Shown: in pieces, positions 6,153-50,193 of the stretch
Layout: the number at the start of each line of letters is the position of its first letter
Position numbering within the stretch: position 1 is the first letter of the stretch
Assembly: GCA_964419775.1 (NCBI GenBank)
Contig: CAYQRF010000002.1
Location: 7,837-71,836 of the forward strand
Direction: 5' to 3'
Length of the DNA: 64,000 nucleotides
Source: an uncultured Rikenellaceae bacterium
Lineage (GTDB): Bacteria; Bacteroidota; Bacteroidia; Bacteroidales; VadinHA17
The notes under the pieces: generated by a model
The model's database searches: none
Told to the model about the DNA's origin: nothing
The model's input: only the letters and a program-made list of their open reading frames with translations
Position numbers and translations under genes: made by a program

Positions 6153-6317
6153 CAAGACCTGTTTTATAAGTTCAGTCGGGCTAAACAAAAAAGCATTTTT
6201 TGATCAATGGTTGCTAATCAGGCATCAAAAGGTTTTTTTCTTTTGACAGACGGCTTGTTTTAATGGTTTAATGATATAAAAATATCTCATTTTGAGACAC
6301 TTTGGAGTCATGTATGT

Positions 6318-6348
6318 TTTGTTGTCTAAGCTTTATTTGTTAAATTTG
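6318..6348 (+). promoter_or_regulatory. Bacteroidota promoter TTTG N19 TAAATTTG upstream of capD-like gene
   Basis: TTTG at 6318-6321, a 19-nt spacer, then TAAATTTG at 6341-6348, 54 nt before the ATG at 6402. Confidence 0.55.
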
Positions 6349-6401
6349 AAAGACAGATTGCTCAAGGGTTTGGTAGTGCAGTTTGAAAACTGAATTCTGA
6401 A

Positions 6402-8345: not shown

Positions 8346-8349
8346 TCCA

Positions 8350-8375
8350 TAAAAAAAAGCGCCGTTTAAGGCGCT
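8350..8375 (-). terminator. intrinsic terminator downstream of tRNA-Arg, also placed just after the capD stop
   Basis: Hairpin AGCGCC-GTTTAA-GGCGCT at 8358-8375. On the minus strand it is followed by a run of 8 T, the complement of A8 at 8351-8358. Confidence 0.6.
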
Positions 8376-8380
8376 TCTTG

Positions 8381-8454
8381 TGATCCCGACAGGATTCAAA
8401 CCTGTAACCTTCTGATCCGTAGTCAGATGCTCTATTCAGTTAAGCTACGGGACC
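8381..8454 (-). tRNA. tRNA-Arg (anticodon ACG)
   Basis: The reverse complement folds by hand as a 74-nt cloverleaf. Acceptor GGTCCCG/CGGGATC, D-arm GCTT..GAGC, anticodon stem TCTGA/TCAGA with loop CTACGGA, T-arm ACAGG-TTTGAAT-CCTGT, discriminator A. No CCA is encoded. Confidence 0.9.
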
Positions 8455-8583
8455 TCATTGTCAATTTCAGGTTGCAAATATAATAATTTTTTCTGCCTCT
8501 GTTAATGCTTATCTTTATTTGTCGAAAAACGTAAAATATTTCATATTTTATATCGTTGAAAATCATTAGACAAATTACTTAAA

Positions 8584-11406
8584 ATGAAGAAAGCAACATC
8601 AATAATACTGAAATCTCTTCTCGGACTGGTTCTTCTCATCCTGATACTCCTGTTCTCAGTTCCCCTTATTTTCAGGGATAAGATAAAGGAGAAGATTGTG
8701 AATGTGATCAACGAATCGGTTGAAGCCAGAGTAAGTTTTGGCGACTACAAGCTGGGATTCTTTAAAAACTTTCCCAACCTTACTTTTTCACTCGGAAACC
8801 TGTCGGTGGCAGGTGTGGGAAAGTTTGAAGGTGATACGCTTGCGGCTGCCAACTCGATTAATCTCGTGTTTAATCTGTCGAGTATTTTCGGAAAGGAAGG
8901 CTATGAAGTCAAATCGGTGATAATAGATGGCGCCGCCGTAAAGACTTTGGTCCTTGAAGATGGAAGCGCAAACTGGGATATAATGACCGACAGCGAGGAA
9001 GAAGAAGCGGAGGCGGAATCAGATTCCGGCGTGAAGATACTCCTGAAAGAGGTAAAAATGCTCACCAGCTCTGTTTCATATATTGACAGGGAATCGGATA
9101 TCTCAGCGTGGCTGGGTAATGTGAATGGTTCTCTGAGCGGCGATCTGGCCGGCAGCAAAAGCGACCTGGTCATAGCCCTTGAATCGGATGATTTTGATTT
9201 TGTAATGGAAGACATAAAGTATATCAGCAATGCAAAAGCAACTGCATTGGTGAATGTCCTGGCTGATATCGACAGTATGATATTCCGTCTGAAGGAAAAT
9301 TCAGTGACAATCAACGATCTGCTTCTTAATTTTGCCGGAACGGTAATCATGCCGGGTGATGATATAGAAACCGATCTGACATTCAGATCGGATAAGACCT
9401 CGTTCAAATCACTTATCTCCCTGATTCCTGCCTTGTATATGAAGGACTTTCAGGACCTGAAAGCCGAAGGCACATTTAATCTTTCAGGCCTGGCAAAAGG
9501 AATATACAGCAGCGCCGACAGCACCATGCCTGATATTTCCCTTGACCTGAATGTGAAAGATGGTCTTATCAGCTATCCTGCACTGCCTGAGCAGATAAAA
9601 AGAATAAACCTCGAATCTTCAATATTTGTTGATGGAAAGGATATGGACAAGACCAGGGTGGATGTTTCAGTCTTTCATTTTGAACTTGCAGGAAATCCAT
9701 TTGATATGAGGTTTTATCTCAGAACTCCGATGAGCGATCCCGATATCGATGGTTCAGCCAGGGGAAAAATTGATCTGACCGCACTCACAAAAGCAATCCC
9801 GATGGATAGTATAAAGTTGGAAGGGCTGATTGACATGTCGGTGGATCTGGCAGGAAGGATGTCGATGCTTGAACAATCACAATACGACAGGTTTAAGGCA
9901 TCGGGGAACATTAACCTGAAAGACATGCTGATTGCAATGACCGGATATCCCGAAGTGAACATCAGGGAAGCAGGAATGTCTATCACACCGGCATTTGCGG
10001 AACTTAAAAATGCAGAAATCAGCATCGGACAGGCCAGTGATTTCAACCTGGAAGGAAAACTGGAAAACTATATCCCATATGTACTTAAAGATGAGACCAT
10101 CAGGGGCAAGCTATCACTGCATTCCCGGCAGATCGATCTGACTGAAATTATGGCTGGCATGGCAACAGAGACAACTGATGAGGACACTGCATCGCTTGCA
10201 GTCATCAAAGTGCCGGGCAACATTGACTTCGATTTCAATGCTCAGGTTGACAGGTTCAAATACAATACTATTAATGCAAGCAATGTAACCGGTCACATTC
10301 TTGTAAAAGACGGGATTCTGACTTTGAAGGATACCGGTATGGACCTGCTTGGGGGCAAAGTGGCTTTCAATGCCGATTATGACACCCGCGACACACTCAA
10401 TCCGTTCGTAAAGGCTGACCTGAACGTTTTTGATCTTGGCATCAGGGATGCATTTGACGTTTTCAATACCATTAAGATGCTTGCTCCGACAGCAAAGGGT
10501 ATTGACGGCAAATTTGACTTTTCACTCAATTTCAGCAGTATGCTTCAGAATGATTTCATGCCCAGGATTTCAACAATAACCGGAGCCGGAAAAATGAAGT
10601 CAAGAGAAGTGACACTGGTCGAATCTGCAGTCTTTAACACCATGAAGGAGGTTCTCAGGATTGGCAAAGGCTATACCAATACGTTCAGGGATTTGAATAT
10701 AAGCTTCAAGGTCAGCGACGGACGCTTGTTCGTCAGTCCGTTCAATACCCGTGTCGGAAATATGAAAATGAACATCAGCGGTGACCAGGGTATGGACCAG
10801 ACGATTAACTATGCTATAAAGACAGAAATACCCAGGTCGGAACTGGGAAATGCGGCCAATTCACTTATTGAAAGCCTGTCGGCTCAGGCTTCTGCATTTG
10901 GCGTAGCGATTAAACCGTCTGAAATACTGAAAATCAATGTAAATGTATCCGGTACTTTCCTTAAACCGGTTGTAAAACCATTTTTTGGTGATAACCCGTC
11001 TGACAGCACCTCGGCTATGGACATCAGGGAAACAGCCAGGGAGGCAGTAAAGGAAGTTGCAAGGGAGAAGGTTGAAGAGGTCAGGGAGAATGTGAAGAGC
11101 GAAGCTGAAATTCAGGGCGACAAACTGGTTCAGGAGGCAGAAGGCCAGGCACAGCAGTTAAGGGATGAGGCTTCAAAGGCTGCGGAAAAGATCCGTCTTG
11201 AAGCCCGGGCCCAGGCCGACAAGCTGGTTAAAGAAGCAGAATCCAAAGGCCCTCTTGCCAGGCTGGGAGCCCAAAAGGCAGCCGACGGCCTGATAAAGGA
11301 AGCAGACCGGAAGGCCGATCAACTGGTAAAAGAGTCGGACGAAAAAGCTTTGAAACTTGTTGATGAGGCTAAGGCAAAGCGGGAAGTATTGCTTCAGAAG
11401 ATATAA
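8584..11406 (+). CDS. AsmA-family outer-membrane biogenesis protein with a C-terminal Lys/Glu/Ala-rich repeat tail
   Basis: 940-aa ORF with an N-terminal TM anchor and a long beta-rich body typical of AsmA-like proteins. The C-terminal roughly 130 aa hold repeated ADKLVKEAE-like motifs. Confidence 0.75.
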   Translation: MKKATSIILKSLLGLVLLILILLFSVPLIFRDKIKEKIVNVINESVEARVSFGDYKLGFFKNFPNLTFSLGNLSVAGVGKFEGDTLAAANSINLVFNLSSIFGKEGYEVKSVIIDGAAVKTLVLEDGSANWDIMTDSEEEEAEAESDSGVKILLKEVKMLTSSVSYIDRESDISAWLGNVNGSLSGDLAGSKSDLVIALESDDFDFVMEDIKYISNAKATALVNVLADIDSMIFRLKENSVTINDLLLNFAGTVIMPGDDIETDLTFRSDKTSFKSLISLIPALYMKDFQDLKAEGTFNLSGLAKGIYSSADSTMPDISLDLNVKDGLISYPALPEQIKRINLESSIFVDGKDMDKTRVDVSVFHFELAGNPFDMRFYLRTPMSDPDIDGSARGKIDLTALTKAIPMDSIKLEGLIDMSVDLAGRMSMLEQSQYDRFKASGNINLKDMLIAMTGYPEVNIREAGMSITPAFAELKNAEISIGQASDFNLEGKLENYIPYVLKDETIRGKLSLHSRQIDLTEIMAGMATETTDEDTASLAVIKVPGNIDFDFNAQVDRFKYNTINASNVTGHILVKDGILTLKDTGMDLLGGKVAFNADYDTRDTLNPFVKADLNVFDLGIRDAFDVFNTIKMLAPTAKGIDGKFDFSLNFSSMLQNDFMPRISTITGAGKMKSREVTLVESAVFNTMKEVLRIGKGYTNTFRDLNISFKVSDGRLFVSPFNTRVGNMKMNISGDQGMDQTINYAIKTEIPRSELGNAANSLIESLSAQASAFGVAIKPSEILKINVNVSGTFLKPVVKPFFGDNPSDSTSAMDIRETAREAVKEVAREKVEEVRENVKSEAEIQGDKLVQEAEGQAQQLRDEASKAAEKIRLEARAQADKLVKEAESKGPLARLGAQKAADGLIKEADRKADQLVKESDEKALKLVDEAKAKREVLLQKI

Positions 11407-11411
11407 AACAA

Positions 11412-11441
11412 AAAAGGCTGTTCCTTGCGGACAGCCTTTTT
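11412..11441. terminator. bidirectional intrinsic terminator between asmA and rplS
   Basis: Hairpin GGCTGT(T)CC-TTGC-GG-ACAGCC, flanked by an A-run upstream and a T-run downstream. Confidence 0.6.
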
Positions 11442-11456
11442 TGATATTAATATATT

Positions 11457-11804
11457 CTAGAATTTCTTCTCCTTGATTCGTGCTTTCTTTCCGGTAAGGT
11501 CGCGGAGGTAGAAAATCCTGGCCCTGCGCACTTTTCCATGCTTGTTTACTTCGATCTTGTCAATGAAAGGCGAGACCAGCGGGAATATTCTTTCAACACC
11601 GATATTACCCGACATTTTTCTGACAGTAAAGGTCTCAGTGTGGCCGCTACCACTCCGCTGGATCACTACGCCGCGGAATTGCTGAATTCTCTCCTTGTTC
11701 CCTTCCTTTATCTTATAGTGAACAGTAATAGTATCTCCGGCAATAAACCTCGGATATTCATTTTTTACTGCAAATTCCTTTTCAACAACGTCCATTAAAT
11801 TCAT
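11457..11804 (-). CDS. rplS: 50S ribosomal protein L19
   Basis: [11 protein letters not shown]...[28 protein letters not shown]...[55 protein letters not shown]. The track start at 11852 lies inside the promoter, so the ATG at 11804 (or 11795) is used. Confidence 0.95.
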
Positions 11805-11849
11805 TTCACAACAATTTTGTTTCAAACAACATGATCTAAAATCAGGGTG

Positions 11850-11880
11850 CAAAAATACAAATTTTCTTAATATTCACAAA
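11850..11880 (-). promoter_or_regulatory. Bacteroidota promoter TTTG N19 TATTTTTG for rplS
   Basis: The plus strand reads CAAAAATA at 11850-11857 and CAAA at 11877-11880, with a 19-nt spacer. Confidence 0.6.
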
Positions 11881-11921
11881 CACCGGAATTTAAATTTTGT
11901 CATTAATGGTCAAACAAACCA

Positions 11922-13655
11922 CTAATGTCCGCCTCCTGCCGGAACCAGCAGCTTGTTGCCCGTATCCTGGATGACCGATTTTTTCCACTTGTCGTCATAT
12001 CCCGGCTGCATAGGAAAATCAGGATATCCGTCCTCAGTAGTGGAGAACTTGCCGTCTTTTTCCTTTTTTATGTTGCCATCGATGTATTTGACGAGCAGGT
12101 ATTCACTGAGTTTTTTCCATTCTTTAAAGGTATTACCGGCTGTTTCAACTGAATACCTGGTAAGGTAATCACGCGCTTTCCATACATCGTTTTCATAAAG
12201 TTTCTTAGCTTCCTCATCGATTTTGGAAACAGTCTCCTTAATATATCTGGTTTCCAGTTCCCGCTGAACATCAAGAGCATCTTCGCTCATCATGTCGTAG
12301 CGAAGGTAGCACATGTTTGCCACCTGGTTAAACAGCCAGAAGGCGGAAGTGGGAGAGTAGGTGACCATGCTTCCGTTCCCTGTCTTGAAACATTCGGGTA
12401 TCTCGGTGATACCGCAGTACATCGGATTGAAAACAGTCGTTCCTGCATCGTCAACGCCGAACCAGAAGATACCGCCGATTGGATCAGGCAGCCAGTTGCG
12501 TGATTCTGCCACAAAGACAAAACCTGTCTGCTGTGTGCCTGTAGCTCTCTCGTTGCAGTAAGTGGGTGCGTTGGGGTCGTCTGATACTTTCCAGGAAAGT
12601 GGTCTCCATCGGTATGGCGAGCCGAAGGGGCCTGCGCCTATGTCTTTTCGCATGTCAAATTCGGTGCCTTCGAGATGATCGCGCATGAAATTCATGAGAT
12701 CGTAATTGGAGACTTTCCGGTTTGGTTTAATCCAGAGAGGCATTCTTTTACTGAGGTCATGTCCGGAAGCATATCCTTTAAATTGCTCCATTTCGTTGCT
12801 GACAGCCCTGAAAAATGCCCATACCCTCATTTCGCAGTATCTTGCACCGTCGAAGGTGATAGGATTATAGGTATCGGAGAAGCTGAATTCCTGGTCGGTT
12901 CCCTTGTAGAGCCCTTTTGTTCTTGCGAATTCAATTACATCCTGGGCATAAACGCATTCAACAACCGGATCAAATATCCTGCGGATATCCTTTGATGTGA
13001 TTGCATTGCTTGTCTTTTTGCCTGTGGCAAGCGGAAAAGTCTGAATCCTTGCCTGGTTGGCATGAGCGCTGACATATCCGTCGGGAATCAGGCGTGCTAC
13101 CCATACAGCTCCCTTGTTGCCCTGTCCTTTGCCAATTATTTCAAATATCCATGCCTCATTGGGATCGGCAATGGAAAATGACTCACCGGAACTTGCATAG
13201 CCGTATTCCGCAACGAGTTCTGAAATAACCTTGATGGCTTCCCTTGCATTTTTTGCCCTCTGAAGAGTGATGTAAATCAGGCTGCCGTAATCAACGATTC
13301 CATCAGGATCAACAAGACCGTCAACTCCGCCATAGGTGGTCTCACCTATCGACAGCTGGTGTTCATTCATATTCCCCACAACAGAGTAAGTATGTCTTGC
13401 CTGCTTGATTTTTCCAAGGAATTTTCCGGTATCCCATTCGTAAACATCCAGCCAGGCACCTTCAGGATAATCTCTTGAAGGCCAGTGGTAAAGCTCTCCA
13501 TAAAGAACGTGGGAGTCAGCTGAATATGTAATCATTACCGATCCGTTGGCAGATGCTCCTCTTGTTACGATAAAGTTAGTGCATGCGGCCGATTCAGGAG
13601 CCTGGATCATCCAGGCAAAAAATATCGCCGTTATTGTTGCAAATAGCTTCTTCAT
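11922..13655 (-). CDS. secreted dipeptidase, peptidase family C69
   Basis: 577-aa ORF with a signal peptide followed by ACTNFIVTRGASANGS. This is the N-terminal nucleophile Cys context of C69 / Ntn-hydrolase dipeptidases. Confidence 0.85.
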   Translation of the reverse strand: MKKLFATITAIFFAWMIQAPESAACTNFIVTRGASANGSVMITYSADSHVLYGELYHWPSRDYPEGAWLDVYEWDTGKFLGKIKQARHTYSVVGNMNEHQLSIGETTYGGVDGLVDPDGIVDYGSLIYITLQRAKNAREAIKVISELVAEYGYASSGESFSIADPNEAWIFEIIGKGQGNKGAVWVARLIPDGYVSAHANQARIQTFPLATGKKTSNAITSKDIRRIFDPVVECVYAQDVIEFARTKGLYKGTDQEFSFSDTYNPITFDGARYCEMRVWAFFRAVSNEMEQFKGYASGHDLSKRMPLWIKPNRKVSNYDLMNFMRDHLEGTEFDMRKDIGAGPFGSPYRWRPLSWKVSDDPNAPTYCNERATGTQQTGFVFVAESRNWLPDPIGGIFWFGVDDAGTTVFNPMYCGITEIPECFKTGNGSMVTYSPTSAFWLFNQVANMCYLRYDMMSEDALDVQRELETRYIKETVSKIDEEAKKLYENDVWKARDYLTRYSVETAGNTFKEWKKLSEYLLVKYIDGNIKKEKDGKFSTTEDGYPDFPMQPGYDDKWKKSVIQDTGNKLLVPAGGGH

Positions 13656-40736: not shown

Positions 40737-41573
40737 TCAGGTAGGACTCATAGTACTCGAAAATTCGTTGATTGAATTATCGCGGTTTACAGCTGCCGCG
40801 ACAGGTATGGAGAAAAAGATGGAAGAACCTGTTCTTCCGTTGTTCTCAATCCAGAGCGATCCGTCCATCATCCGGATCAGTTTGCGTGCAAGGGCCATGC
40901 TTACAGCCATATGGATGTCGTTAAACTTCGCAAGTGATTCTGATATATCCCTGCTGTGAAGAAATTCCCTGCATTTCAGGTAACCCTGACCCGAATCAGT
41001 GATGCAGAACCTGAGATGGCCATCAGCAATGTTATAGCCGACTTTAATATACCCTGATTCAGTGTTGCTCAAAGCGATCTGGAATAAATTGCGAATTACC
41101 CTTGTCACCCTGTTGGCATCAAAGAGGCAGTCAGGACTCTGGCAGGTCAAATTGTCGGATACAAGAAGCAGATCCTTGTATCTTTCCTTTTGAAGTATTT
41201 CCCTGAACTCTGAAAAAAGACCAGCGAACATCTCACCCGTATGCACTACTCCCGGTTCCGAAATTGAATTACCCGTATCAATGATTGCGGAATCCAGGAA
41301 ATTGTCAAAAAGTGAAATAATCTGTTCGCATGAATTATATATGTGATTGCTGAATTCTTCCCGCTCGGCTTCGCAATATTCCTTCTTGTTCATCATGAAT
41401 GAAAATGCAACTATTGCGTTCATCCGGGTCCTCATTTCGCGCGACAGCTCAGTCAGCACTGTGGAACAGCCCGATACCGGTTCAATCAAATGATCTCCGT
41501 TTCTGGCCTGATCCCTTTTTACAGGAACCGGATCACCCGAATCACCCCTCATATGCCCAAAAAGGTCGAACAT
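40737..41573 (-). CDS. cytoplasmic histidine-kinase-like protein lacking the phospho-acceptor His (degenerate HisKA + HATPase_c)
   Basis: The H-box position reads LSREMRTRMNAIVAFSFMM, against the canonical SHELRTPLNAI, so Arg replaces His. An N-box-like NLFQIALSN and a G1-like DSGQGY are present. The G2 region (MAVSMALARKL) has no glycines, and there is no TM segment. Confidence 0.65.
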   Translation of the reverse strand: MFDLFGHMRGDSGDPVPVKRDQARNGDHLIEPVSGCSTVLTELSREMRTRMNAIVAFSFMMNKKEYCEAEREEFSNHIYNSCEQIISLFDNFLDSAIIDTGNSISEPGVVHTGEMFAGLFSEFREILQKERYKDLLLVSDNLTCQSPDCLFDANRVTRVIRNLFQIALSNTESGYIKVGYNIADGHLRFCITDSGQGYLKCREFLHSRDISESLAKFNDIHMAVSMALARKLIRMMDGSLWIENNGRTGSSIFFSIPVAAAVNRDNSINEFSSTMSPT

Positions 41574-41601: not shown

Positions 41602-42357
41602 TTATTTCAGGTATCTGAGAATTTTCCTTGCTTCTTTTCTGTAGATGGTCCTTGAATCTTCAATTGTTGCCAGCTGGCTGACTGCCTTGACTGTCTCACC
41701 TGTCTTCAGATAACAAAGGGCAAGGTACCACTGTGCATGGTCAATATAGAAGTTGTTATTATCTTCTATGACTTTTGAGAATGAATCGCTTGCTTCAGGA
41801 TAATTCTGTGTTTCAAATTTTGAAATGCCATTAAGCAGTTCGGTATGCATGTCGCCCGGATTTTCTGCCAGGACCCTGGAGAAGTAGATTGCGGCGTTCC
41901 TGTAATCCCTTACGTTGTAGTATTCCACGCCAAGCCTGAAATTATCCGAATTTGATGCCATGTTTGCCGAACGCGATATTGTCGCCACTTCATAAGGTTT
42001 GTAGTAGCGGCTTATTATCTCGTCGGTCTCAGGCTTTCCCCGCGACAGCAATGCGATGCTTCCTATTATTACCAGGCTGGCTATCGCGGCAGCGAATCTT
42101 ATATTAAGCGGCTTCCGTGGTTTTACTTCGGGCACCGGCTCTTTACGCTGCTTCTCAATAGCATTCAGCTTGTTGCGCAGATTCATTATATCCCGGTCCT
42201 TCAGAATCATATCGGTCCTGCTGCGCAACTCAACCTCCCGGCGAAGCTTCTCATTGCCTTCCAGCTCTTTTCTGAACCATTCCTTTTCAGCTTCATCCAT
42301 CTCACCGGCATTGTACCGTTCGATAAAGTATGAAAAATCAATTGTCTTCATAGCCAT
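41602..42357 (-). CDS. single-pass membrane protein with cytoplasmic anti-sigma-like N-domain and extracytoplasmic TPR domain
   Basis: The start is MAMKTIDFSYFIERYNAGEMDEAEKEWFRKEL (ATG at 42357 or 42351). A TM helix FAAAIASLVIIGSIALL sits near residue 100, and TPR-like repeats follow (YYNVRDYRNAAIYFSRVL, YLALCYLKTGE). Confidence 0.6.
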   Translation of the reverse strand: MAMKTIDFSYFIERYNAGEMDEAEKEWFRKELEGNEKLRREVELRSRTDMILKDRDIMNLRNKLNAIEKQRKEPVPEVKPRKPLNIRFAAAIASLVIIGSIALLSRGKPETDEIISRYYKPYEVATISRSANMASNSDNFRLGVEYYNVRDYRNAAIYFSRVLAENPGDMHTELLNGISKFETQNYPEASDSFSKVIEDNNNFYIDHAQWYLALCYLKTGETVKAVSQLATIEDSRTIYRKEARKILRYLK

Positions 42358-42564
42358 ATAATGTTTAAGTATATATCCAATTATCATCCATTCAGACTGA
42401 TAGCATGTACATACCTGATGCACGGGCTACAGCACTCCGAATGCAATTCCACTGCCGGGAAAAAATTCTTCCAGCCCGGCTGAAATTCAATCAACCAAAA
42501 ACAACCTTCTGCCGTTTAAACAGAACCCTGCCTTCACTAAGACAGAACCGGCAGCTATATTTTT

Positions 42565-42699
42565 TCAGATCTGAACAGGAGGCAATGAGGGTTTCAGAAT
42601 AGGATCGGCATCACCGCCTTTCACACAAATCATTTCTTCAACTGTCAGAGCATAGACATCAAGAGTCACATCGTGGTTTTTTACGTTCAGGGAGTTCAT
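42565..42699 (-). CDS. double-glycine (GG) leader peptide precursor, 44 aa; predicted mature 15-mer DADPILKPSLPPVQI
   Basis: Hand translation gives MNSLNVKNHDVTLDVYALTVEEMICVKGG/DADPILKPSLPPVQI, then a stop. It has GG at -2/-1, hydrophobic residues at -4, -7, -12 and -15, and EE at -9/-8. It falls below the size cut-off of the ORF track. A C39-ABC exporter and HlyD partner are in the same locus. Confidence 0.7.
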   Translation of the reverse strand: MNSLNVKNHDVTLDVYALTVEEMICVKGGDADPILKPSLPPVQI

Positions 42700-42946
42700 A
42701 GTGCTGATTTTTTTACATTGATACTTATTTCGGGTAATTCGCAATTTTTAAGTCAAATTCTATGTATCATGTCGGAATACCCCGTTTTGTGACAATGAAA
42801 ATTGAATTATTTTTAATAAATTTTCTTATATCAAGATAATCAGCAATATACAAAACAGGAAAAACGGGCACACAGACCTTCATAATAACATTTTTTGTAA
42901 ACTTGCGTTTTGGCACTGGGGAGAGACAAATAAATCAGCGACCTTA

Positions 42947-45900
42947 ATGTTTTCAGGCATCTTCATAAAGTCATTATTGGTATTTTTCATTTCTGCTGTC
43001 AGTATTCAACTGGAATCTGGAGTTACGGATACCAGTCAGGAGCTTGCCCGATTGAATGAGGCCTTTCATGCAACTATTGCAGCCGGCGACACCGCCGGAT
43101 CGAGGGATATTCTTAATTCAATCCTGAAGATGCTCAGTGAGGATAGTGCTGAAAATATCACCGTCGCAAATTCACAGTATTATATCGGTGTCTATTATCT
43201 GCTGAACGGCAGGAACAAGGAAGCTGTCAACTGGCTGGGTTCGTCGGTATCGATCCGTGAACAGACAAAGACTGTTGACGAGGTGTATGCAAAGAGCCTC
43301 TTTAATCTGGCCCTGGCACATTCCCGGCGCGGAGATTTCAAAAAGATGGAGGAAAGCATACTCAAATCTCTTGATGCTAAAAAGTCCATGTATGGCGGGA
43401 ACAGTCCCAGACTGCTCGACGGATATTCCGCATTGACGGGAGCCTGCATCAGCCTGAAGGATTACAGCCGGGCAATAGAATACGGGAATAAGGCACTCGA
43501 CCTTATAGGGGATGACAGGAATGAACATATTAACGAACTGGCGATCCTTTATGTGAATATCGGCATAAGCCATGCCTTTATGTCAGATTATGCAAAAGCG
43601 GTAATGTTCCTTGAAAGGGCAGAAGCATTGTACCGGACCAGCTCCCTTCCCGGGGATGAAAACTATATTAACCTGCTTAACAGCCTTGCCTCCAATTACC
43701 ATTTCCTGGGACAGCGCGAAAAATCCGAACAATATTTCAACAAAGGTTTCAGTTTGATAAGCTCGGCAAATTCCGATTTGTCGCTGAATTTTCTGAACAG
43801 CTTTGCAATAAACATGGGAAACGCCGGAGAGGTGTTAAAAGGGGAGAAACTCCTGGCCGGATCACTTGACAAGGCCGGAAAGATATTTGGTCAAAGATCG
43901 AGGGAATACTGCGAGATGCTCAGGAATTACGCCGAATATTACAGAAGTTTCAATCTGAATATAGGTAAATCAATTGCATTATTTGAAAAGTGCAATGAAT
44001 TGCTTAAGGACAACGCAGAGGATCTTGCATTGAAAGAATCTGTTCTGCTCGGATATGCCCAGGCTCTTTCAGAAAACGGGGAGAATGTAAAAGCTCTTGG
44101 GATAATTCAAAATCTTCTTTTCGAAGGCCGGGAAGGGACAAACGGAGGTTCGGGACTTGAAAATCCCGATCCGGCTTTAATTGAACCTACTCAATGGTCG
44201 CTAAGGCTGCTCAGGGCAAAATACCGCATACTCCATGGGATCTACAGGAAAGAGCCTGATCAGAGCTACCTTCTGGCTGCAGCCGGGACGTCCGAACTGA
44301 TAGTATCCCTGATTGAAAAGGTCAGGATAAGCATCAGTGAGGAAGAGAGCAGGCTTGTGCTCGGCGACAGGTTCAGGGATTCCTATCTTCACGCCATCCG
44401 CGATCTTGACCGGTGTTACCGTATAACCGGCGACATCAGATATCTGCACAAGGCTTTTGAATATTCCGAAAAATCGAAGGCTGCCGGCCTTCTGGCTTCA
44501 ACAAGGGAACTAAGGGCAACAGAGTTTCATATTCCTGAAGAAACTGCGGAACTGGAACGAAGGCTTAAAATGGAAATTGGATTTTATGAAGCCAGAATAA
44601 ATGAGGAAGAATCAAAAAAAGAAGGTGATGTCTCCCTTATAGAGGAATGGAAGGACCTTCTGCTGACGGCCACACAGCGGCGGGATTCTCTGATTGCTGT
44701 CTTCGAGCGTATGTATCCCGGTTATTATCATATCAAATACAATACTGAGGTTATTTCACCCGAAAAGATCCCGGGCATTTCGGGAAGGAACACCAACTAC
44801 CTCAATTATGTTGTGTCCGACAGCCTCCTTCATATTTTTGTTGTAAACCGGAAGCACTTCCGGCTTGTCACGGTAAACATTGACTCAACTTTTTTCAGTG
44901 ATATCCGGCAATTCCGGACTCTTCTGTCGGAACCTGACAATAATGCCCGTACAGGTTTCAACAGATACCTTTCAACAGGCTACAGGCTTTACCGGACTGT
45001 CATTGAGCCTGTGAAGGAATATCTGATTTCAAACAGCCTGCTGATCTCTCCCGACAACATTCTTTCCTACATACCATTTGAAGCACTTCCTGTCAGCGCT
45101 GAAGCCGGGAACCTTGCCATGTTCACCCGGATTCCATATCTCCTGAGGGATTACATGGTCTCCTATACCTATTCCGCCACAATGCTCGCTGAATCAGTCA
45201 CCAGCGATCACAGTTTTTCAAACTCACTTGTAGCCTTTGCCCCAAGCTATAACGGGAGGATCGATGTTGACTCACTTATGAAGTCAAGGCAATCAAGGGT
45301 GTCAACCCTGTACGACCTTAAATTTGCCAGGACCGAGGCTGAATATGTTGCGGAACTCACAGGAGGCAGGCTTTATCTCGACAATGACGCGAAAGAATCG
45401 GTTTTTAAAACCGTTGCATCTGAATATGATATTATTCATCTTGCAATGCATACCTTGCTGAACGACCAGGATCCGATGCATTCAAAGATGATTTTTTCGC
45501 AGGATGACGATACTCCGGAGGACGGCAACCTTAATACCTGGGAGGTTTATGGGATTCCGCTCAAGGCAAAAATGGTTATACTAAGCTCCTGCAATACCGG
45601 AAGCGGTTCCCTGAATTCAGGCGAAGGCATACTGAGCCTTGCCAGGGGCTTTGTTTACTCAGGATCCAGGTCAGTTGTCATGTCAATGTGGGAAATAGAA
45701 GACAGGTCGGGTGCCGAGATAGTGAATAAATACTACAGGAACATCAAACATGGAGCGTCCAAAAGCATGGCGTTGCGAAAGGCAAGGCTTGACTATCTTA
45801 AAAATTCCGACATGCTGCGATCTCATCCGTATTACTGGTCGTCGCTGGTTGTTTACGGAAACAATACACCAATTTATTTTTCAGTATGGCTGAAAGTTGG

Positions 45901-45964
45901 AGCGGTAATGCTTCTCCTTGTTATTTCTGTCCTGCTGTTCCTGATTTATCGGAAATCAAGGTAA
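42947..45964 (+). CDS. TPR-repeat CHAT-domain (caspase-like) protease with N-terminal signal/anchor and C-terminal TM helix
   Basis: 1005-aa ORF with many TPR-like repeats in the first 400 aa or so. The CHAT His motif is YDIIHLAMHT and the Cys motif is MVILSSCNTGSG. The C-terminal TM helix VGAVMLLLVISVLLFLIY is followed by RKSR. Confidence 0.85.
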   Translation: MFSGIFIKSLLVFFISAVSIQLESGVTDTSQELARLNEAFHATIAAGDTAGSRDILNSILKMLSEDSAENITVANSQYYIGVYYLLNGRNKEAVNWLGSSVSIREQTKTVDEVYAKSLFNLALAHSRRGDFKKMEESILKSLDAKKSMYGGNSPRLLDGYSALTGACISLKDYSRAIEYGNKALDLIGDDRNEHINELAILYVNIGISHAFMSDYAKAVMFLERAEALYRTSSLPGDENYINLLNSLASNYHFLGQREKSEQYFNKGFSLISSANSDLSLNFLNSFAINMGNAGEVLKGEKLLAGSLDKAGKIFGQRSREYCEMLRNYAEYYRSFNLNIGKSIALFEKCNELLKDNAEDLALKESVLLGYAQALSENGENVKALGIIQNLLFEGREGTNGGSGLENPDPALIEPTQWSLRLLRAKYRILHGIYRKEPDQSYLLAAAGTSELIVSLIEKVRISISEEESRLVLGDRFRDSYLHAIRDLDRCYRITGDIRYLHKAFEYSEKSKAAGLLASTRELRATEFHIPEETAELERRLKMEIGFYEARINEEESKKEGDVSLIEEWKDLLLTATQRRDSLIAVFERMYPGYYHIKYNTEVISPEKIPGISGRNTNYLNYVVSDSLLHIFVVNRKHFRLVTVNIDSTFFSDIRQFRTLLSEPDNNARTGFNRYLSTGYRLYRTVIEPVKEYLISNSLLISPDNILSYIPFEALPVSAEAGNLAMFTRIPYLLRDYMVSYTYSATMLAESVTSDHSFSNSLVAFAPSYNGRIDVDSLMKSRQSRVSTLYDLKFARTEAEYVAELTGGRLYLDNDAKESVFKTVASEYDIIHLAMHTLLNDQDPMHSKMIFSQDDDTPEDGNLNTWEVYGIPLKAKMVILSSCNTGSGSLNSGEGILSLARGFVYSGSRSVVMSMWEIEDRSGAEIVNKYYRNIKHGASKSMALRKARLDYLKNSDMLRSHPYYWSSLVVYGNNTPIYFSVWLKVGAVMLLLVISVLLFLIYRKSR

Positions 45965-46545
45965 TCCTTGTATTCCGGGTCGGATTTCACCAGCTCCATC
46001 AGCGCTTCTTTACTTAGGTATTTCTTGCGCCTTGCGTAGGTTTCATTCTTCAGATTCATTTTTTCAGCAATCTCCGGGTATGAAAATCCCTCTGAGAACA
46101 GTGAAAGAATAGTCTGCGCATCATCGCTCAGCTTTCTGAAAGCACGGCTGACAATGCTTTCAAGCAGCAAACCCGGATCATCACCTTCGTCATCATCAGG
46201 ATAATCACTATCAATTCCGGTATTTCTCATCCTTTTTCTCAGCTGTGCATTCCATACATTCCGTGCAATTCCGTAAAAATAACCCCTGAGGTCAGTCGTG
46301 AGCTTAAAACCATCTGACGTAATCTGACGATAAAGTGTAATAATGGATTCCTGGAACACATCGGCGACATCGGACTCCGACCCGCTGTTCCTGAGCACAT
46401 GATGCCTTACAGTCTCAAGGTAATTATCATAGAGCCAGTTCAGTATCTGATCATCCTGTTGCCGGATTCCATCTACTATCGTACTATCTGAGATTCTTCG
46501 GAACAATTGCTGATTTTTTGCCCGGATAAATTGACAAATATACAA
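45946..46545 (-). CDS. sigma-70 family (ECF-type) RNA polymerase sigma factor
   Basis: Region 2-like DVADVFQESIITLY...YFYGIARNVW and a region 4 HTH (FSEGFSYPEIAEKMNLKNETYARRKKYLSKEAL). There is no in-frame ATG near the 5' end; candidate TTG starts are at 46545 and 46506. The 3' end overlaps the CHAT gene by 19 nt. Confidence 0.8.
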   Translation of the reverse strand: MYICQFIRAKNQQLFRRISDSTIVDGIRQQDDQILNWLYDNYLETVRHHVLRNSGSESDVADVFQESIITLYRQITSDGFKLTTDLRGYFYGIARNVWNAQLRKRMRNTGIDSDYPDDDEGDDPGLLLESIVSRAFRKLSDDAQTILSLFSEGFSYPEIAEKMNLKNETYARRKKYLSKEALMELVKSDPEYKDYLDFR

Positions 46546-46667: not shown

Positions 46668-48854
46668 ATGTTATTCCCCTTTGTAAAACAACATGATGCA
46701 ATGGATTGTGGCCCCGCCTGCCTCAAGATGATAGCGGCGTATCACGGGAAAAACTTTTCAATGGATTACCTGCGAAAGAAATGTTACATAACGAAGGAGG
46801 GTGTATCCTTCCTGGGTTTGTCAGAGGCTGCAGATTCTGCAGGATTCAGGACAATGGGGATTAAAATACCCTTTGAGGTGCTCCGGGAAAAAATCGCACT
46901 CCCATGTATAGTTCACTGGCGTCAGAAACACTTCGTGGTTGTTTACCGGATCAGGAAAGGAAAAATATATGCAGCGGACCCTGCGACCGGACTTGTAACC
47001 TATACTCAGGATGAATTCGAAAAGAACTGGGCAGTCACAATGGTCGACGGTAAGCCTGCCGGCCTGGCTCTGACCGTTGAACCGACTCCCTCGCTTTACA
47101 GCCTCGATGACCAGCCGGAAAAGACAGGAGGCTTCAGGTTCCTTCTGAAATACTTCAGGCTGTACAGGAAATATTTCGGTCAGCTTCTCCTGGGGCTGCT
47201 GATCGGTAGTTGCATCCAGCTGATTTTCCCTTTCCTCACCCAGTCAATAATTGACATCGGGATCAACAATAATGACCTGGGATTCATTTACCTGATACTG
47301 TTTGCCCAGCTGGCCCTGATACTTGGCCGAATGTCGGTTGAATTCATCCGCGGATGGCTGCTCCTTCATATCGGATCGAGAGTTAACGTTGCCGTGGTTT
47401 CCGGATTTCTGAACAAGCTGATGTCGCTTCCCGTGGCTTTTTTTGACACCAGGCTCACAGGCGATATAATCCAGCGAATTGACGATAACCACAGGATAGA
47501 GGATTTTCTTACATCAGCCAGTCTCAGTATATTGTTTTCATTTGTAAATCTTGTTGTGTTCGGCATAGTGCTCGCCGCCTTCAGCCTGAAAATATTCCTG
47601 ATTTTCCTTGCGGGAACAGGCCTGTATATTCTGTGGGTTTCGCTGTTTCTCAAACCAAGGGCGAAGCTGGATGATCTACGATTCAGGGAAATGTCAGTAT
47701 CAGGTTCGAAGCTGATTAATATCATCAACGGAATGCAGGAGATAAAACTGACCCAGAGCGAAACAAGCAAGCGCTGGGACTGGGAAGTCCATCAGGCATC
47801 CCTGTTTTCCCTTAAGGTTAAAGGTCTGGGGCTTATTCAGTACCAGTCGGCCGGTGCCACCCTTGTCAACGAGGTAATGAATATTTTCATAACGATTTTT
47901 GCGGCAACAGCTGTTCTGAAGGGACAAGTGACGCTGGGTATGATGCTTGCAGTTCAGTTTATAATCGGACAGCTCAATATTCCTGTTAACCAGATCATCG
48001 GCTTCTTTCGCATGTCGCAGGATGCCAGGATCAGTCTCGACCGTCTCGCTGAGGTTCATAATATGGAAGATGAGGAACCTTTGCCTGAGGAAAAGCTTCA
48101 GCAAATGCCGGACGACCGGACCATCAGGATTAACAATCTTGCGTTTCAGTATGAGGGTCCCCGTTCGCCCTATGCCCTGAAGGATATCACTCTGGATATT
48201 GAACCGGGAAGGACTGTGGCAATTGTTGGCACAAGCGGCAGCGGTAAGACAACTCTACTGAAGATGCTTCTTGGATTCTATCAGCCGGTTAACGGAAACA
48301 TAACTGTTGGAGGCATCAGTCTGTCGGACATAAGCTTGCGGCTCTGGAGGAATAAGACAGGAGCGGTAATGCAGGATGGATTCCTGTTTCCCGACACTAT
48401 AGCCGGCAATCTTGCCCCGGGGGCTGCGGCAATTGATGAAGCCAGGCTTCGTGAAGCGGTTGAAACAGCCAACATAAGGGAATTCATAGAATCTCTCCCC
48501 CTGGGATACAATACCAGGATCGGTGCAAATGGCCACGGCCTCAGTGAAGGCCAGAAACAAAGGCTGCTGATAGCCCGGATTGTATACAAGGACCCGGAGA
48601 TAGTCCTGTTCGATGAAGCCACAAATTCACTCGATGCAAATACTGAAAAGGCAATCGTTGAAAACCTGTCAGGATTCTTCAGAAACAAAACGGTTGTCAT
48701 TGTAGCCCATCGTTTGAGTACAGTCAGGAATGCTGACAAAATAGTGGTTCTTGAGGGAGGCCGGATCATTGAAACCGGAAACCACCGGGAACTTGTCGAA
48801 AGCAGAGGTGCTTATTACAACCTGGTAAAAAACCAGCTGGAACTGGGGAATTGA
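46668..48854 (+). CDS. peptidase C39 domain-containing ABC transporter (PCAT; GG-leader peptide cleavage/export)
   Basis: The N-terminal C39 domain has Gln/Cys (KQHDAMDCGPACL), His (RQKHFVVV) and Asp (AADPATG). It also has six TM helices, Walker A GTSGSGKTT, signature LSEGQKQR, Walker B IVLFDEAT and H-loop VAHRLS. Confidence 0.9.
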   Translation: MLFPFVKQHDAMDCGPACLKMIAAYHGKNFSMDYLRKKCYITKEGVSFLGLSEAADSAGFRTMGIKIPFEVLREKIALPCIVHWRQKHFVVVYRIRKGKIYAADPATGLVTYTQDEFEKNWAVTMVDGKPAGLALTVEPTPSLYSLDDQPEKTGGFRFLLKYFRLYRKYFGQLLLGLLIGSCIQLIFPFLTQSIIDIGINNNDLGFIYLILFAQLALILGRMSVEFIRGWLLLHIGSRVNVAVVSGFLNKLMSLPVAFFDTRLTGDIIQRIDDNHRIEDFLTSASLSILFSFVNLVVFGIVLAAFSLKIFLIFLAGTGLYILWVSLFLKPRAKLDDLRFREMSVSGSKLINIINGMQEIKLTQSETSKRWDWEVHQASLFSLKVKGLGLIQYQSAGATLVNEVMNIFITIFAATAVLKGQVTLGMMLAVQFIIGQLNIPVNQIIGFFRMSQDARISLDRLAEVHNMEDEEPLPEEKLQQMPDDRTIRINNLAFQYEGPRSPYALKDITLDIEPGRTVAIVGTSGSGKTTLLKMLLGFYQPVNGNITVGGISLSDISLRLWRNKTGAVMQDGFLFPDTIAGNLAPGAAAIDEARLREAVETANIREFIESLPLGYNTRIGANGHGLSEGQKQRLLIARIVYKDPEIVLFDEATNSLDANTEKAIVENLSGFFRNKTVVIVAHRLSTVRNADKIVVLEGGRIIETGNHRELVESRGAYYNLVKNQLELGN

Positions 48855-48864
48855 ACCTTGGAAT

Positions 48865-50193
48865 ATGGAAGAGCCGGAAAAAGATGAGATAGTATATTCA
48901 GAACCCGTTAGAGATCTGATGGGAGCTGTGCCTGGCAGGATACTGAGGTGGGGCACAGGAATTATCATGGCAGTAATGGCCCTGTTTATTTTCTTCCTGT
49001 GGCTTGTGAAATATCCCGACAGGATCCCCGCACCGGTTGAAATTACTACGGTTAACCCGCCTGCCATACTTGTTTCAAAAATATCCGGAAGAATTAACAA
49101 TCTTTATGTGAACGACAGGGACGAGGTCGGGGAGGGCCAGTTGCTTGCAGTGATGGAAACTGCGGCTTCGATAAGCGAAATCAACCATCTCAAATCAATT
49201 GTCGACACTGTCGGTGACCCGGGAAGGTTGCTTCAGAATTCACTCCCCGTTTTTTCAGAGCTCGGAGAGCTGCAGAGTTACTGGAGCTCCTTTCTTAAAA
49301 GCCTGTCTGATTACAGCAACTACAATATCAATGACTTTTACGGCAATAAGATCCTTTCGCTTACAGATGAGATAAACGCTATTCTGGCTTATATCGGAAA
49401 AGTAAAGGTGAAGGAGGATTTGTACTCCGAGAACCAGATGCTTGAAACCAGGAAGTACCGAAGGGATTCGCTGCTTTATTCTGAAGGAGTATACTCTGAA
49501 AGCGAGCTGGAGAAATCACTCCAGGCTCTGATCAGGCTTAACATAGAACTTCAGCAGGTACGGCTCGATCACTCCCAGAAATCAATCGAACTTGCTGAAA
49601 AAAGGCAGTTGCTTCAGGATTACAGAATCAGGGGACTGGAGGACCGGGAAAAGTATTATTCGGTTCTTAGTGAATCTTTTATGAATCTCAGGGCTCAGTT
49701 AAGGATATGGGAAAATACCTATTTGCTTGTATCTCCTGTCGCGGGAACGGTAACACTTACCAGGTTCTGGAGCGAAAATCAGACAGTTGGCAAAGATGAA
49801 CCTGTCATGAGTGTTATTCCCACGGAAACCGGAGACTATGTCGGCAGGATAAGCCTTAAAATGAACCGTTCAGGCAAGGTCAAACCCGGTCAGGATGTCC
49901 ATATCAAATTAAGCGGATATCCGTACCTGGAATATGGGATGGTAAGGGGAGTCGTGAAATCAAAGTCCCTGGTTCCTTCAGCCGATTCGTATATAATAGA
50001 AATATTCCTGCCTCAGGGCCTGACTACCCTGTATGGGAAAAATCTCGATTTTACACAAAATATGCAGGGTACTGCAGAGATAATCACAGAGGACCTTCGT
50101 CTGCTTGAGAAAATTCTCAATCCGGTCAGGCATCTTGTTTCCCGGAACCAGAGCCGGGCTGTTTCCCTGAATAAGGCTCATAGGTATCCCTGA
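48865..50193 (+). CDS. HlyD-family membrane fusion / secretion accessory protein
   Basis: 442-aa ORF with an N-terminal TM helix (GIIMAVMALFIFFLWLV), a long coiled-coil middle and a C-terminal beta domain. It starts 10 nt after the PCAT stop. Confidence 0.85.
   Translation: MEEPEKDEIVYSEPVRDLMGAVPGRILRWGTGIIMAVMALFIFFLWLVKYPDRIPAPVEITTVNPPAILVSKISGRINNLYVNDRDEVGEGQLLAVMETAASISEINHLKSIVDTVGDPGRLLQNSLPVFSELGELQSYWSSFLKSLSDYSNYNINDFYGNKILSLTDEINAILAYIGKVKVKEDLYSENQMLETRKYRRDSLLYSEGVYSESELEKSLQALIRLNIELQQVRLDHSQKSIELAEKRQLLQDYRIRGLEDREKYYSVLSESFMNLRAQLRIWENTYLLVSPVAGTVTLTRFWSENQTVGKDEPVMSVIPTETGDYVGRISLKMNRSGKVKPGQDVHIKLSGYPYLEYGMVRGVVKSKSLVPSADSYIIEIFLPQGLTTLYGKNLDFTQNMQGTAEIITEDLRLLEKILNPVRHLVSRNQSRAVSLNKAHRYP

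Follow-up and report, generated by a model that had tools for sequence, protein, structure and literature searches.

Does the short open reading frame at window:42565-42699(-), which falls below a 60-aa ORF floor, encode a genuine exported peptide, and if so, what might that peptide do? The window is the whole 64,000-nucleotide stretch of DNA that was analyzed, from an uncultured Rikenellaceae bacterium (contig CAYQRF010000002.1). An earlier note made from the sequence alone had proposed that this frame is a missed gene for a double-glycine leader peptide with a 15-aa proline-rich core, closer in size to a linear pheromone than to a bacteriocin. Our analysis confirmed the gene and supported the proposed type of product, although its role as a signal remains an inference and nothing is shown experimentally. 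The frame translates exactly as the note described, as MNSLNVKNHDVTLDVYALTVEEMICVKGG/DADPILKPSLPPVQI, with 4 Pro, no Cys and a side-chain charge of -1 in the core, and with L(-12), E(-9), E(-8), M(-7), V(-4) and the GG at the positions claimed. Two points required correction, however. The hydrophobic residue that the note counted at -15 (Val here) is not a feature of the family, in which -15 is mostly Glu; the conserved hydrophobic positions are -4, -6, -7, -12, -14, -17 and -18. In addition, the gene is missed only by the 60-aa floor, since several public pipelines call orthologs as hypothetical proteins.

We first asked whether such a motif could arise by chance. The frame is the only ORF in the window that fits a GG-leader pattern. 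A loose pattern appears about 0.47 times per random 64-kb window, whereas the published consensus L[ST]xxE[LM]xx[IV]xGG in a short ORF appeared in 0 of 200 Markov simulations. Conservation, rather than the motif count, is the decisive evidence. Searches with tblastn and HMMs identified the ORF with its GG motif in 12 species-representative genomes and in hundreds of metagenome contigs, always in syntenic loci. Across 15 distinct orthologous sequences the dN/dS was 0.23, with values of 0.027 in the last 14 leader codons (16-29) and 0.19 in the core, and 40 of 45 third codon positions varied compared to 15 of 45 second positions. The flanking 3' spacer is poorly conserved, while the ORF is conserved. 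In total we found 19 close homologs and at least 343 wider ones, counted as protein clusters, all 42-52 aa in length or with upstream start extensions, and all ending at the same C-terminal residue. These have a 29-aa double-glycine leader and a 12-21-aa acidic-to-neutral, proline-rich, Cys-poor core ending PP[IV][KR]I. All are labelled hypothetical or unnamed, and no member reaches a curated Pfam or NCBIfam model. An antisense 65-aa ORF at 42405-42602 is broken in relatives and was rejected as a gene, and Rfam found nothing at 42200-43100.

The leader conforms to the known requirements for recognition by C39 peptidases. L(-12) is present in 170 of 172 members, E(-8) in 171 of 172, and V or I at -4 in all, and 171 of 172 have the GG. 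The pattern used to select these members fixed M(-7) and G(-2), allowed only G or S at -1, and limited the residues at -2 to -4, -8 and -9, so that only -12 was left wholly free. However, M(-7) and G28 are also invariant, and G29 near-invariant, among 63 sequences selected independently by HMM. These features match the published L(-12)xxxE(-8)L(-7)...GG consensus, with M in place of L at -7, and the Val-4/Leu-7/Leu-12 groove contacts (PMC6363468). Curated GG-leader models (TIGR01847, TIGR04149, PF03047, PF10439 and others) nevertheless do not recognize the peptide of the window, which had no NCBIfam hit at E up to 1 and no Pfam hit at E up to 10. Eleven of the 63 family members gave only weak matches, the best with an E of 7.5e-4, to TIGR04149 and to a lantibiotic leader model. 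These matches leave open the remote possibility that the peptide is a RiPP precursor whose core is modified by enzymes encoded elsewhere, as in the Bacteroidota GG-leader radical-SAM peptides of TIGR04149. However, only 4 of 154 distinct cores have one Cys and none has two, no maturase lies in the conserved block, and the only radical-SAM gene nearby is QueE-like, though below NCBIfam cut-offs.

The peptide gene lies within a fixed block of genes (Table 1). Every locus examined has the same block, comprising HlyD, the C39 ABC exporter (PCAT), the ECF sigma factor, the TPR-CHAT protease, the peptide, the single-pass TPR protein and the histidine-kinase-like protein, and every peptide locus whose contig reaches far enough carries the PCAT and HlyD. 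The C39 domain of the PCAT aligns to LahT150 (6mpz) and PCAT1 (4ry2), with its Cys, His and Asp matched. It should be noted that the whole region, including unrelated flanking genes, is syntenic, and co-location within this clade is therefore weak evidence of function by itself. Four related CHAT loci without the peptide have no PCAT within the 8-10 kb fetched on each side, or within the whole 8.9-kb contig in one case. We are confident that the ORF is a real gene for a PCAT-exported peptide. It is inferred that the PCAT cuts after Gly29 and exports the product together with the HlyD adaptor, releasing a 15-residue, unmodified, slightly acidic linear peptide with a free ...PPV(Q/K)I carboxyl end.

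Table 1. Features of the peptide locus, in window coordinates.
Feature	Coordinates	Strand	Size	Description
Precursor peptide gene	42565..42699	-	44 codons plus stop	Leader, codons 1-29 (42613-42699); core, codons 30-44 (42568-42612); stop, 42565-42567; ATG at 42699
Bipartite element	42763..42795	-		TTGTCACAAAAC-N9-CGACATGATACA, with the core TGTCAC-N14-[CT]G[AT]CA[CT], about 95 nt upstream of the ATG; candidate alternative-sigma (ECF-type) promoter
First stem-loop	42510..42553	-		Just 3' of the stop codon; possible terminator, attenuator or stabilizer
Second stem-loop	42455..42479	-		Between the peptide gene and the TPR-protein gene
Single-pass membrane TPR protein	41602..42351	-	249 aa	Start at the conserved MKTIDF; cytoplasmic N-terminus, membrane helix at about 81-105 (105-129 of the longer 273-aa ORF), periplasmic TPR domain; proposed anti-sigma factor
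Histidine-kinase-like protein	40737..41573	-	278 aa	Cytoplasmic; DHp plus CA domains, no membrane or sensor domain; phospho-acceptor His replaced by Arg in this subclade, G2 box absent
TPR-CHAT caspase-like protease	42947..45964	+	1005 aa	N-terminal signal or anchor helix (1-23), C-terminal membrane helix (about 980-1003), bulk predicted periplasmic; catalytic dyad H835/C882
ECF-type sigma factor	45946..46506	-	186 aa	Likely TTG start at 46506; the mechanical ORF runs on to 46545, with a perfect TATATTTG -7 box at 46535-46542 inside it
PCAT	46668..48854	+		Intact C39 domain (Gln8, Cys14, His88, Asp104)
HlyD-type periplasmic adaptor	48865..50193	+	442 aa	N-terminal membrane helix

Is the product a toxin? 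A GG leader with a PCAT and a HlyD adaptor is the classic Gram-negative microcin export layout (PMC6363468), some members show the weak similarity to bacteriocin and lantibiotic leader models noted above, and proline-rich peptides can be antimicrobial. It is therefore still possible that the peptide is a microcin, a class II bacteriocin-like peptide or a proline-rich peptide with an intracellular target, and that the sigma/anti-sigma/CHAT genes only regulate its production or provide self-protection. However, we consider this unlikely. Class II bacteriocins and microcins have a cationic or amphipathic core of about 25-60 aa, often with a disulfide, whereas the 154 distinct cores here have a side-chain charge of -3 to +1, 27.5% Pro and almost no Cys, and lack aromatic residues. 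No conserved small immunity-like membrane ORF lies next to the peptide, and PADLOC gave only generic ABC ATPase hits. Furthermore, the locus is single-copy, vertically inherited with fixed flanks and present in every member of a wide clade rather than strain-variable, and the core motif is conserved rather than diversifying. These properties and the regulatory neighbors favor an autoinducer-like signal over a killing function, but only by a modest margin.

The regulatory neighbors were examined in more detail. The ECF sigma factor scored 52.7 bits against TIGR02937 (cut-off 42.9), and its shorter start is in keeping with orthologs called at 186-187 aa. The assignment of the single-pass TPR protein as its anti-sigma factor rests on architecture and gene order. 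Its cytoplasmic N-terminus is its most conserved part, but this region contains no Cys or His in its first 80 residues and lacks any Cys/His zinc motif. Pfam and PDB profile searches of the N-terminus returned only TPR matches or nothing, with a single weak NCBIfam hit to the 'antisigma' model NF052375 (E 0.007), and a single-sequence AlphaFold model was unusable (pLDDT 50). In three of five distant TPR-CHAT loci (designated L023, L024 and L027), the sigma gene is followed directly by a homologous TPR protein (27-30% identity, E 1e-30), converging on a TPR-CHAT gene, with no GG ORF in L023 and L024 and no PCAT in any of the three. The peptide and its exporter therefore look like an add-on to an older sigma/anti-sigma/CHAT module. 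The TPR-CHAT protein matched Pfam CHAT at 1.8e-54, its His-Cys dyad is invariant in 51 sequences, and its predicted structure (pLDDT 84) matched Csx29, separase and DdvA in a Foldseek search. The best solved relative of the histidine-kinase-like protein is RetS (6dk8, E 6e-9).

The region upstream of the peptide gene offers a further clue. No TAnnTTTG -7 box (consensus from PMC9723704) was found within 200 nt upstream of the peptide gene in any locus, although the sigma gene has this box and the PCAT gene nearly has it. Instead, the peptide gene carries a bipartite element, TGTCAC-N14-CGACAT, whose blocks are invariant in 15 or more loci, including distant ones, and which has no second copy in the window. 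Its function is inferred; it has a 14-nt spacer and CGAC/TGAC in place of the usual ECF CGT box, and could instead be a repressor or activator site. Downstream, an RNAalifold consensus over 11 loci supported both stem-loops with compensatory changes; in the second, pairs 95/118 and 96/117 each change on both sides in 3 of 11 sequences. These hairpins, together with the conserved PP motifs near the stop, could suggest that the ORF is a cis-acting upstream ORF in which ribosome pausing controls read-through into the TPR-protein and kinase-like genes, and that the peptide itself has no role. This seems very improbable, since the strongest selection falls on the exporter-recognition half of the leader, which an arrest peptide would not need, and the PCAT co-occurs with the ORF.

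Taken together, the peptide is somewhat more likely than not to be a self-produced envelope signal for the regulatory module kept with it. In the sequence of events that we propose, the peptide accumulates and is bound by one of the two periplasmic TPR domains, and the CHAT protease then acts as, or helps, the site-1 protease that removes the periplasmic domain of the anti-sigma factor. The freed sigma factor would transcribe from the bipartite element in front of the peptide/TPR-protein/kinase-like operon, giving positive feedback. The CHAT site-1 step is tentative. A distance-matrix co-variation test was uninformative, as correlations with the core, corrected for background proteins, were 0.1-0.5 for all domains with no outlier, and neither TPR domain was singled out as the receptor. 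A peptide exported across both membranes would also have to re-enter the periplasm to be sensed there, and no outer-membrane channel gene lies in the block. Alternatively, the peptide may be a substrate of the CHAT protease rather than its activator, either trimmed after the penultimate Lys/Arg to mature or inactivate it, or acting as a competitive decoy that keeps CHAT off the anti-sigma factor. The adjacent, divergent genes, the intact dyad, the fixed C-terminus and the common basic penultimate residue (K in 100 and R in 20 of 154 cores) are in accord with this idea. However, it appears unlikely, as the cleavage specificity of this protease is unknown, 34 of 154 cores have a non-basic penultimate residue, including Gln in the window itself, and distant CHAT/sigma modules do without any such peptide.

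Peptide pheromones with GG leaders are well known in Firmicutes, but we found no described case in Bacteroidota; no paper in the library searched holds these leader sequences, and searches for CHAT, ECF and GG peptide systems in Bacteroidota found nothing specific. If the doubtful CHAT step were correct, this would be a previously undescribed kind of cell-cell signaling in Bacteroidota, in which a peptide autoinducer sensed in the periplasm through its conserved free C-terminus is wired to regulated proteolysis instead of a two-component system, and it would supply the missing signal class for DdvA-type CHAT anti-sigma systems.

Among known systems, the streptococcal competence pheromone ComC/CSP with ComAB, and the related BlpC and plantaricin A-type pheromones, share with this locus a ribosomal precursor with a double-glycine leader, the leader determinants L(-12), E(-8), hydrophobic -7 and -4 and GG, a dedicated C39 ABC exporter with an accessory protein, and a short linear unmodified product encoded next to regulatory genes. 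However, the host here is a diderm Bacteroidales with a HlyD-type adaptor, the core is acidic to neutral and proline-rich instead of cationic and amphipathic, and there was no ComC Pfam match. No membrane sensor kinase or response regulator lies in the block, and in their place are the ECF sigma factor, the anti-sigma-like TPR protein, the TPR-CHAT protease and the soluble degenerate kinase-like protein. Colicin V (CvaC/CvaAB) and the Bacteroidetocins likewise combine a GG leader, a PCAT and a HlyD-family adaptor in a diderm, but here the core is much shorter, is not cationic and has no disulfide, no immunity gene is present, and the chromosomal position is conserved across a wide clade. In heterocyst patterning of Nostoc, a diderm, the PCAT HetC, the PatS/HetN peptides and the CHAT protease HetF act in one developmental signaling process (PMC10986499, PMC4133259), although those genes are dispersed, the peptides appear unrelated and no ECF sigma/anti-sigma pair is involved. 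The DegS/RseA/sigma-E envelope stress pathway offers a functional analogy only, in that a periplasmic protease activated by the free C-terminus of a peptide cleaves a single-pass anti-sigma factor, and the conserved C-terminus of the cores would fit recognition of a free end; DegS, however, is a PDZ serine protease with no homology to this TPR cysteine protease. Finally, DdvS/DdvA of Myxococcus xanthus (PMC11506125) pairs an ECF sigma factor with a transmembrane anti-sigma factor carrying a periplasmic TPR-CHAT domain with a His-Cys dyad, and its authors proposed that CHAT acts as the site-1 protease on the anti-sigma factor. The predicted fold of the TPR-CHAT protein matches DdvA (8rot_A, E 1.6e-11), although sequence similarity is undetectable. 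In DdvA the anti-sigma domain, with its CHCC zinc-binding motif, and the TPR-CHAT domain lie on one polypeptide, whereas here the anti-sigma-like protein and the protease are separate membrane proteins and no such motif is present. The signal for DdvA is unknown, whereas this locus carries a candidate signal and its exporter.

We first re-examined the short minus-strand ORF of the window, which translates to MNSLNVKNHDVTLDVYALTVEEMICVKGGDADPILKPSLPPVQI and is the only short ORF in the 64-kb window that fits a GG-leader pattern. A loose pattern would turn up about 0.47 times per random window, so the motif alone proves little. However, the published consensus form L[ST]xxE[LM]xx[IV]xGG in a short ORF appeared in 0 of 200 first-order Markov simulations. 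The earlier note had also placed a PCAT and a HlyD partner nearby, and both are present. The PCAT carries Peptidase_C39, ABC_membrane and ABC_tran domains, and its C39 domain aligns to the active solved domains LahT150 (6mpz) and PCAT1 (4ry2), with Cys14, His88 and Asp104 on the catalytic positions.

Coordinates of the features discussed, in the window and in related loci
Locus	Feature	Position	Strand
Window	Kinase-like protein	40737-41573	-
Window	Antisense 65-aa ORF	42405-42602	
Window	Stem-loop 3' of the peptide stop	42455-42479	
Window	Stem-loop 3' of the peptide stop	42510-42553	
Window	Peptide ORF	ATG 42699 to TGA 42567-42565	-
Window	Core residues SLPPVQI	42568-42591	-
Window	Block upstream of the TPR-CHAT start	42888-42908	
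Window	Sigma factor, mechanical ORF	45946-46545	-
Window	Sigma factor, likely TTG start	46506	-
Window	Predicted -7 box of the sigma gene	46535-46542	
Window	PCAT	46668-48854	
Window	HlyD-type adaptor	48865-50193	
L019	59-aa gene	2301-2480	
L021	59-aa gene	2274-2453	
L022	59-aa gene	2290-2469	
L022	TPR-CHAT gene, called in three pieces	6644-9747	
L019	Kinase-like protein	11165-11962	
L021	Kinase-like protein	11250-12086	
L022	Kinase-like protein	11150-11986	
L023	Secreted S8 peptidase or type IX tail protein region before TPR-CHAT	8455-9813	
L024	Secreted S8 peptidase or type IX tail protein region before TPR-CHAT	8519-9739	
L026	Secreted S8 peptidase or type IX tail protein region before TPR-CHAT	4901-7994	
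L027	59-aa ORF with Sec-type signal peptide	319-498	+
L027	Element upstream of the 59-aa ORF	near 156	

Conservation shows that the ORF is a real gene. A search of 5.8 billion proteins found 19 homologues at 60-98% identity, all 44-52 aa, which share an invariant ...L-T-x-E-E-M-I-x-V-K-G-G-D...P-I...P-P..I and stop at the same residue. A scan of species-representative genomes found it in 12 uncultured Bacteroidales MAGs, some labelled Rikenellaceae. Across 15 distinct orthologous nucleotide sequences, 40 of 45 third codon positions vary, against 15 of 45 second positions. The overall dN/dS is 0.23, with values of 0.76 in the N-terminal part of the leader, 0.027 in leader codons 16-29 and 0.19 in the core. 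The ATG is the conserved start, and upstream in-frame extensions differ between loci. The spacer 3' of the stop is poorly conserved in sequence but holds two stem-loops with compensatory changes; that the ORF is a cis-acting upstream ORF has not been excluded by experiment. An antisense 65-aa ORF is broken in relatives and is not a gene.

The peptide belongs to a large, unnamed family. A profile of the first hits, run against 1.84 billion cluster representatives, found about 60 clusters that match over the whole peptide, and a 63-sequence profile found 343 proteins at E up to 0.001. Every name given by a source is "hypothetical protein". Two family hits look degenerate: P0056 keeps the leader but loses GG and the core, so it may be a frameshift, whereas P0071 has the core behind an unrelated N-terminus. 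Among 172 listed members with 154 distinct cores, the leader is about 29 aa (MKTLNxxxxxxxFxxFxL[ST]xEEMIxV[RK]GG) and the core is 12-21 aa (median 16), with a side-chain charge of -3 to +1 and a proline content of 27.5%. One Cys is found in 4 cores and none has two, the first core residue is Asp or Glu in 134 of 154, and the C-terminus is P-P-[IV]-[KR]-[I]. The selection pattern used for this compilation fixed M at -7 and G at -2 and limited the residues allowed at -1, -3, -4, -8 and -9, although M(-7) is independently invariant in the 63 HMM-selected sequences. The leader fits the experimentally defined rules for C39 recognition, L(-12)xxxE(-8)L(-7) plus GG, with -4, -7 and -12 packing into the protease groove (PMC6363468). 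However, the hydrophobic residue that the earlier note counted at -15 is not a family feature, because that position is mostly Glu; positions -14 and -17 are aromatic instead. The SLPPVKI of L001 (the locus of a close orthologue) and other close orthologues contains the LPPVK motif by which IscU binds the Hsp70 HscA, but the residue before PP varies across the family, so this is probably coincidence.

No curated model covers the family. The window's peptide has no NCBIfam or Pfam hit, and 11 of 63 members give weak matches, best E 7.5e-4, to TIGR04149 and to a lantibiotic leader model. A RiPP precursor modified by enzymes encoded elsewhere is one alternative that experiment has not excluded. 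No paper in the literature searched contained the leader sequences.

Every locus that we could read has the same gene order, including those whose peptides are only 28-45% identical to the window's: from a flanking DUF349 gene, HlyD, PCAT, ECF sigma, TPR-CHAT (convergent with sigma), the peptide (divergent from TPR-CHAT), a 249-aa TPR protein and a 278-aa kinase-like protein, followed by a flanking OmpA/PorE-like gene. In the distant loci L019, L021 and L022, a 59-aa gene is called between DUF349 and HlyD. In the MAG carrying L022 the TPR-CHAT gene is split into three called pieces, which could reflect a pseudogene or an assembly error, while the peptide and the other genes are intact. The locus is single-copy, chromosomal and vertically inherited, unlike a typical strain-variable bacteriocin island. 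This also means that synteny within the clade is weak evidence of function on its own.

The TPR-CHAT protein (1005 aa) has a hydrophobic N-terminal helix and a C-terminal membrane helix with a basic tail, so its bulk should be periplasmic. His835 and Cys882 are invariant in 51 sequences, and a model built with 51 sequences (pLDDT 84, pTM 0.79) matches Csx29, separase and the Myxococcus anti-sigma factor DdvA (8rot_A, E 1.6e-11). The 249-aa protein has a cytoplasmic N-terminus that is its most conserved part, one membrane helix and a periplasmic TPR domain. The kinase-like protein is soluble, and its best solved relative is RetS. In the window's subclade Arg replaces the phospho-acceptor His (SREMRT), while more distant members of the same clade keep His (SHEVRT/SHEMRT), and all of them lack the G2 box; this looks like stepwise decay of a kinase into a RetS-like pseudokinase. 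The sigma factor passes the curated ECF cut-off. Its mechanical ORF starts at a TTG that overlaps its own predicted -7 box, a perfect TATATTTG, and the real start is probably a TTG downstream of this box, giving 186 aa, as called in related contigs.

We also looked beyond the clade. The TPR-CHAT search shows orthologues down to 44% identity, then a gap to relatives at 33% or less, of which five (L023 to L027) were looked up. In L023, L024 and L027 an overlapping or near-abutting sigma-then-TPR-protein operon converges on the CHAT gene. The TPR proteins of L023 and L027 are 27-30% identical to the window's 249-aa protein over their full length (E about 1e-30), and the sigma factors of L023, L024 and L027 are 25-32% identical. 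L023 also has a nearby true histidine kinase, 29% identical to the window's kinase-like protein, which has the G2 box. L026 has two unassigned 207-aa and 267-aa genes upstream, then two S8 peptidases, and the 267-aa protein is only weakly similar to the window's TPR protein. L025 has no such context. In L023, L024 and L026 the distant TPR-CHAT genes are preceded by secreted S8 peptidases or by a protein with a type IX secretion tail, and those modules may sense or control secreted proteases. None of the four loci other than L025 has a PCAT within the DNA examined (10 kb on each side for L023 and L024, 8 kb for L026 and the whole 8.9-kb contig for L027), and L023 and L024, the two scanned for it, have no GG-leader ORF. 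The one small gene called in L027 encodes 59 aa with a Sec-type signal peptide instead. It is preceded by an A/T-rich block (TAAAAATAATTCATTTTT) almost identical to the one upstream of the window's peptide, followed by GGTAAC where the window has TGTCAC, which hints that small exported peptides may accompany such modules more widely.

Sigma directly followed by the single-pass TPR protein is the usual sigma/anti-sigma layout. Therefore, we read the 249-aa protein as a candidate anti-sigma factor, and the sigma/anti-sigma/TPR-CHAT (plus kinase) set as an older module to which the window's clade appears to have added the peptide, PCAT and HlyD, with the proposed anti-sigma gene moved to sit behind the peptide gene. 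Within the limits of the DNA examined, peptide and exporter appear together and are absent together.

Upstream of the peptide, every locus has TGTCAC-N14-[CT]G[AT]CA[CT] at -87 to -98, preceded by an A/T-rich block, and the element is unique in the window. No locus has the Bacteroidota housekeeping -7 box TAnnTTTG (PMC9723704) within 200 nt upstream of the peptide, although the sigma gene has a perfect box of that type and the PCAT gene has a near-match. An invariant block, ACGCAAGTTTACAAAAAATGT, also lies about 45 nt upstream of the TPR-CHAT start in the closer relatives but not in distant ones; on the CHAT strand it reads TTTG...TAAACTTG, close to a housekeeping promoter. The arrangement at the peptide fits transcription of the peptide/anti-sigma/kinase-like operon by an alternative sigma factor. 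However, the 14-nt spacer and the CGAC/TGAC block are not the textbook ECF form, so this step is inferred.

It is a strong inference that the PCAT cleaves after Gly29 and, with HlyD, exports a 15-aa unmodified peptide, although no outer-membrane channel gene is in the block. We infer with moderate confidence that the peptide is a signal for the sigma/anti-sigma module and not a toxin: the cores are short, non-cationic and share a conserved motif with a fixed free C-terminus, there is no immunity gene, and the neighbours are regulators. A small antimicrobial peptide nevertheless is not excluded by experiment. More tentatively, a periplasmic TPR domain may bind the peptide, after which the CHAT protease would cleave the anti-sigma factor and the released sigma factor would drive the peptide operon. 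This weakly supported step follows the proposal for DdvA (PMC11506125) and appears to resemble the activation of DegS by peptide C-termini, but it is unclear how an exported peptide would reach the periplasm, and a co-variation test did not identify the receptor. It is still possible that the peptide is instead a substrate or decoy of the CHAT protease, which experiment likewise does not exclude.

In this reading the peptide would work like a ComC-type GG pheromone at the production end, and like a DdvA-type or DegS/RseA-type switch at the proposed reception end. It is a member of the broad class of PCAT substrates by every sequence feature that we could test, but it is not a member of any curated family. 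It lacks defining features of ComCDE systems, because there is no membrane kinase and no response regulator, and of class II bacteriocins, on core size, charge and the lack of an immunity gene. It also differs from TIGR04149 RiPPs, because there is no Cys and no maturase, and from DdvA proper, because here the proteins are separate and there is no zinc motif.
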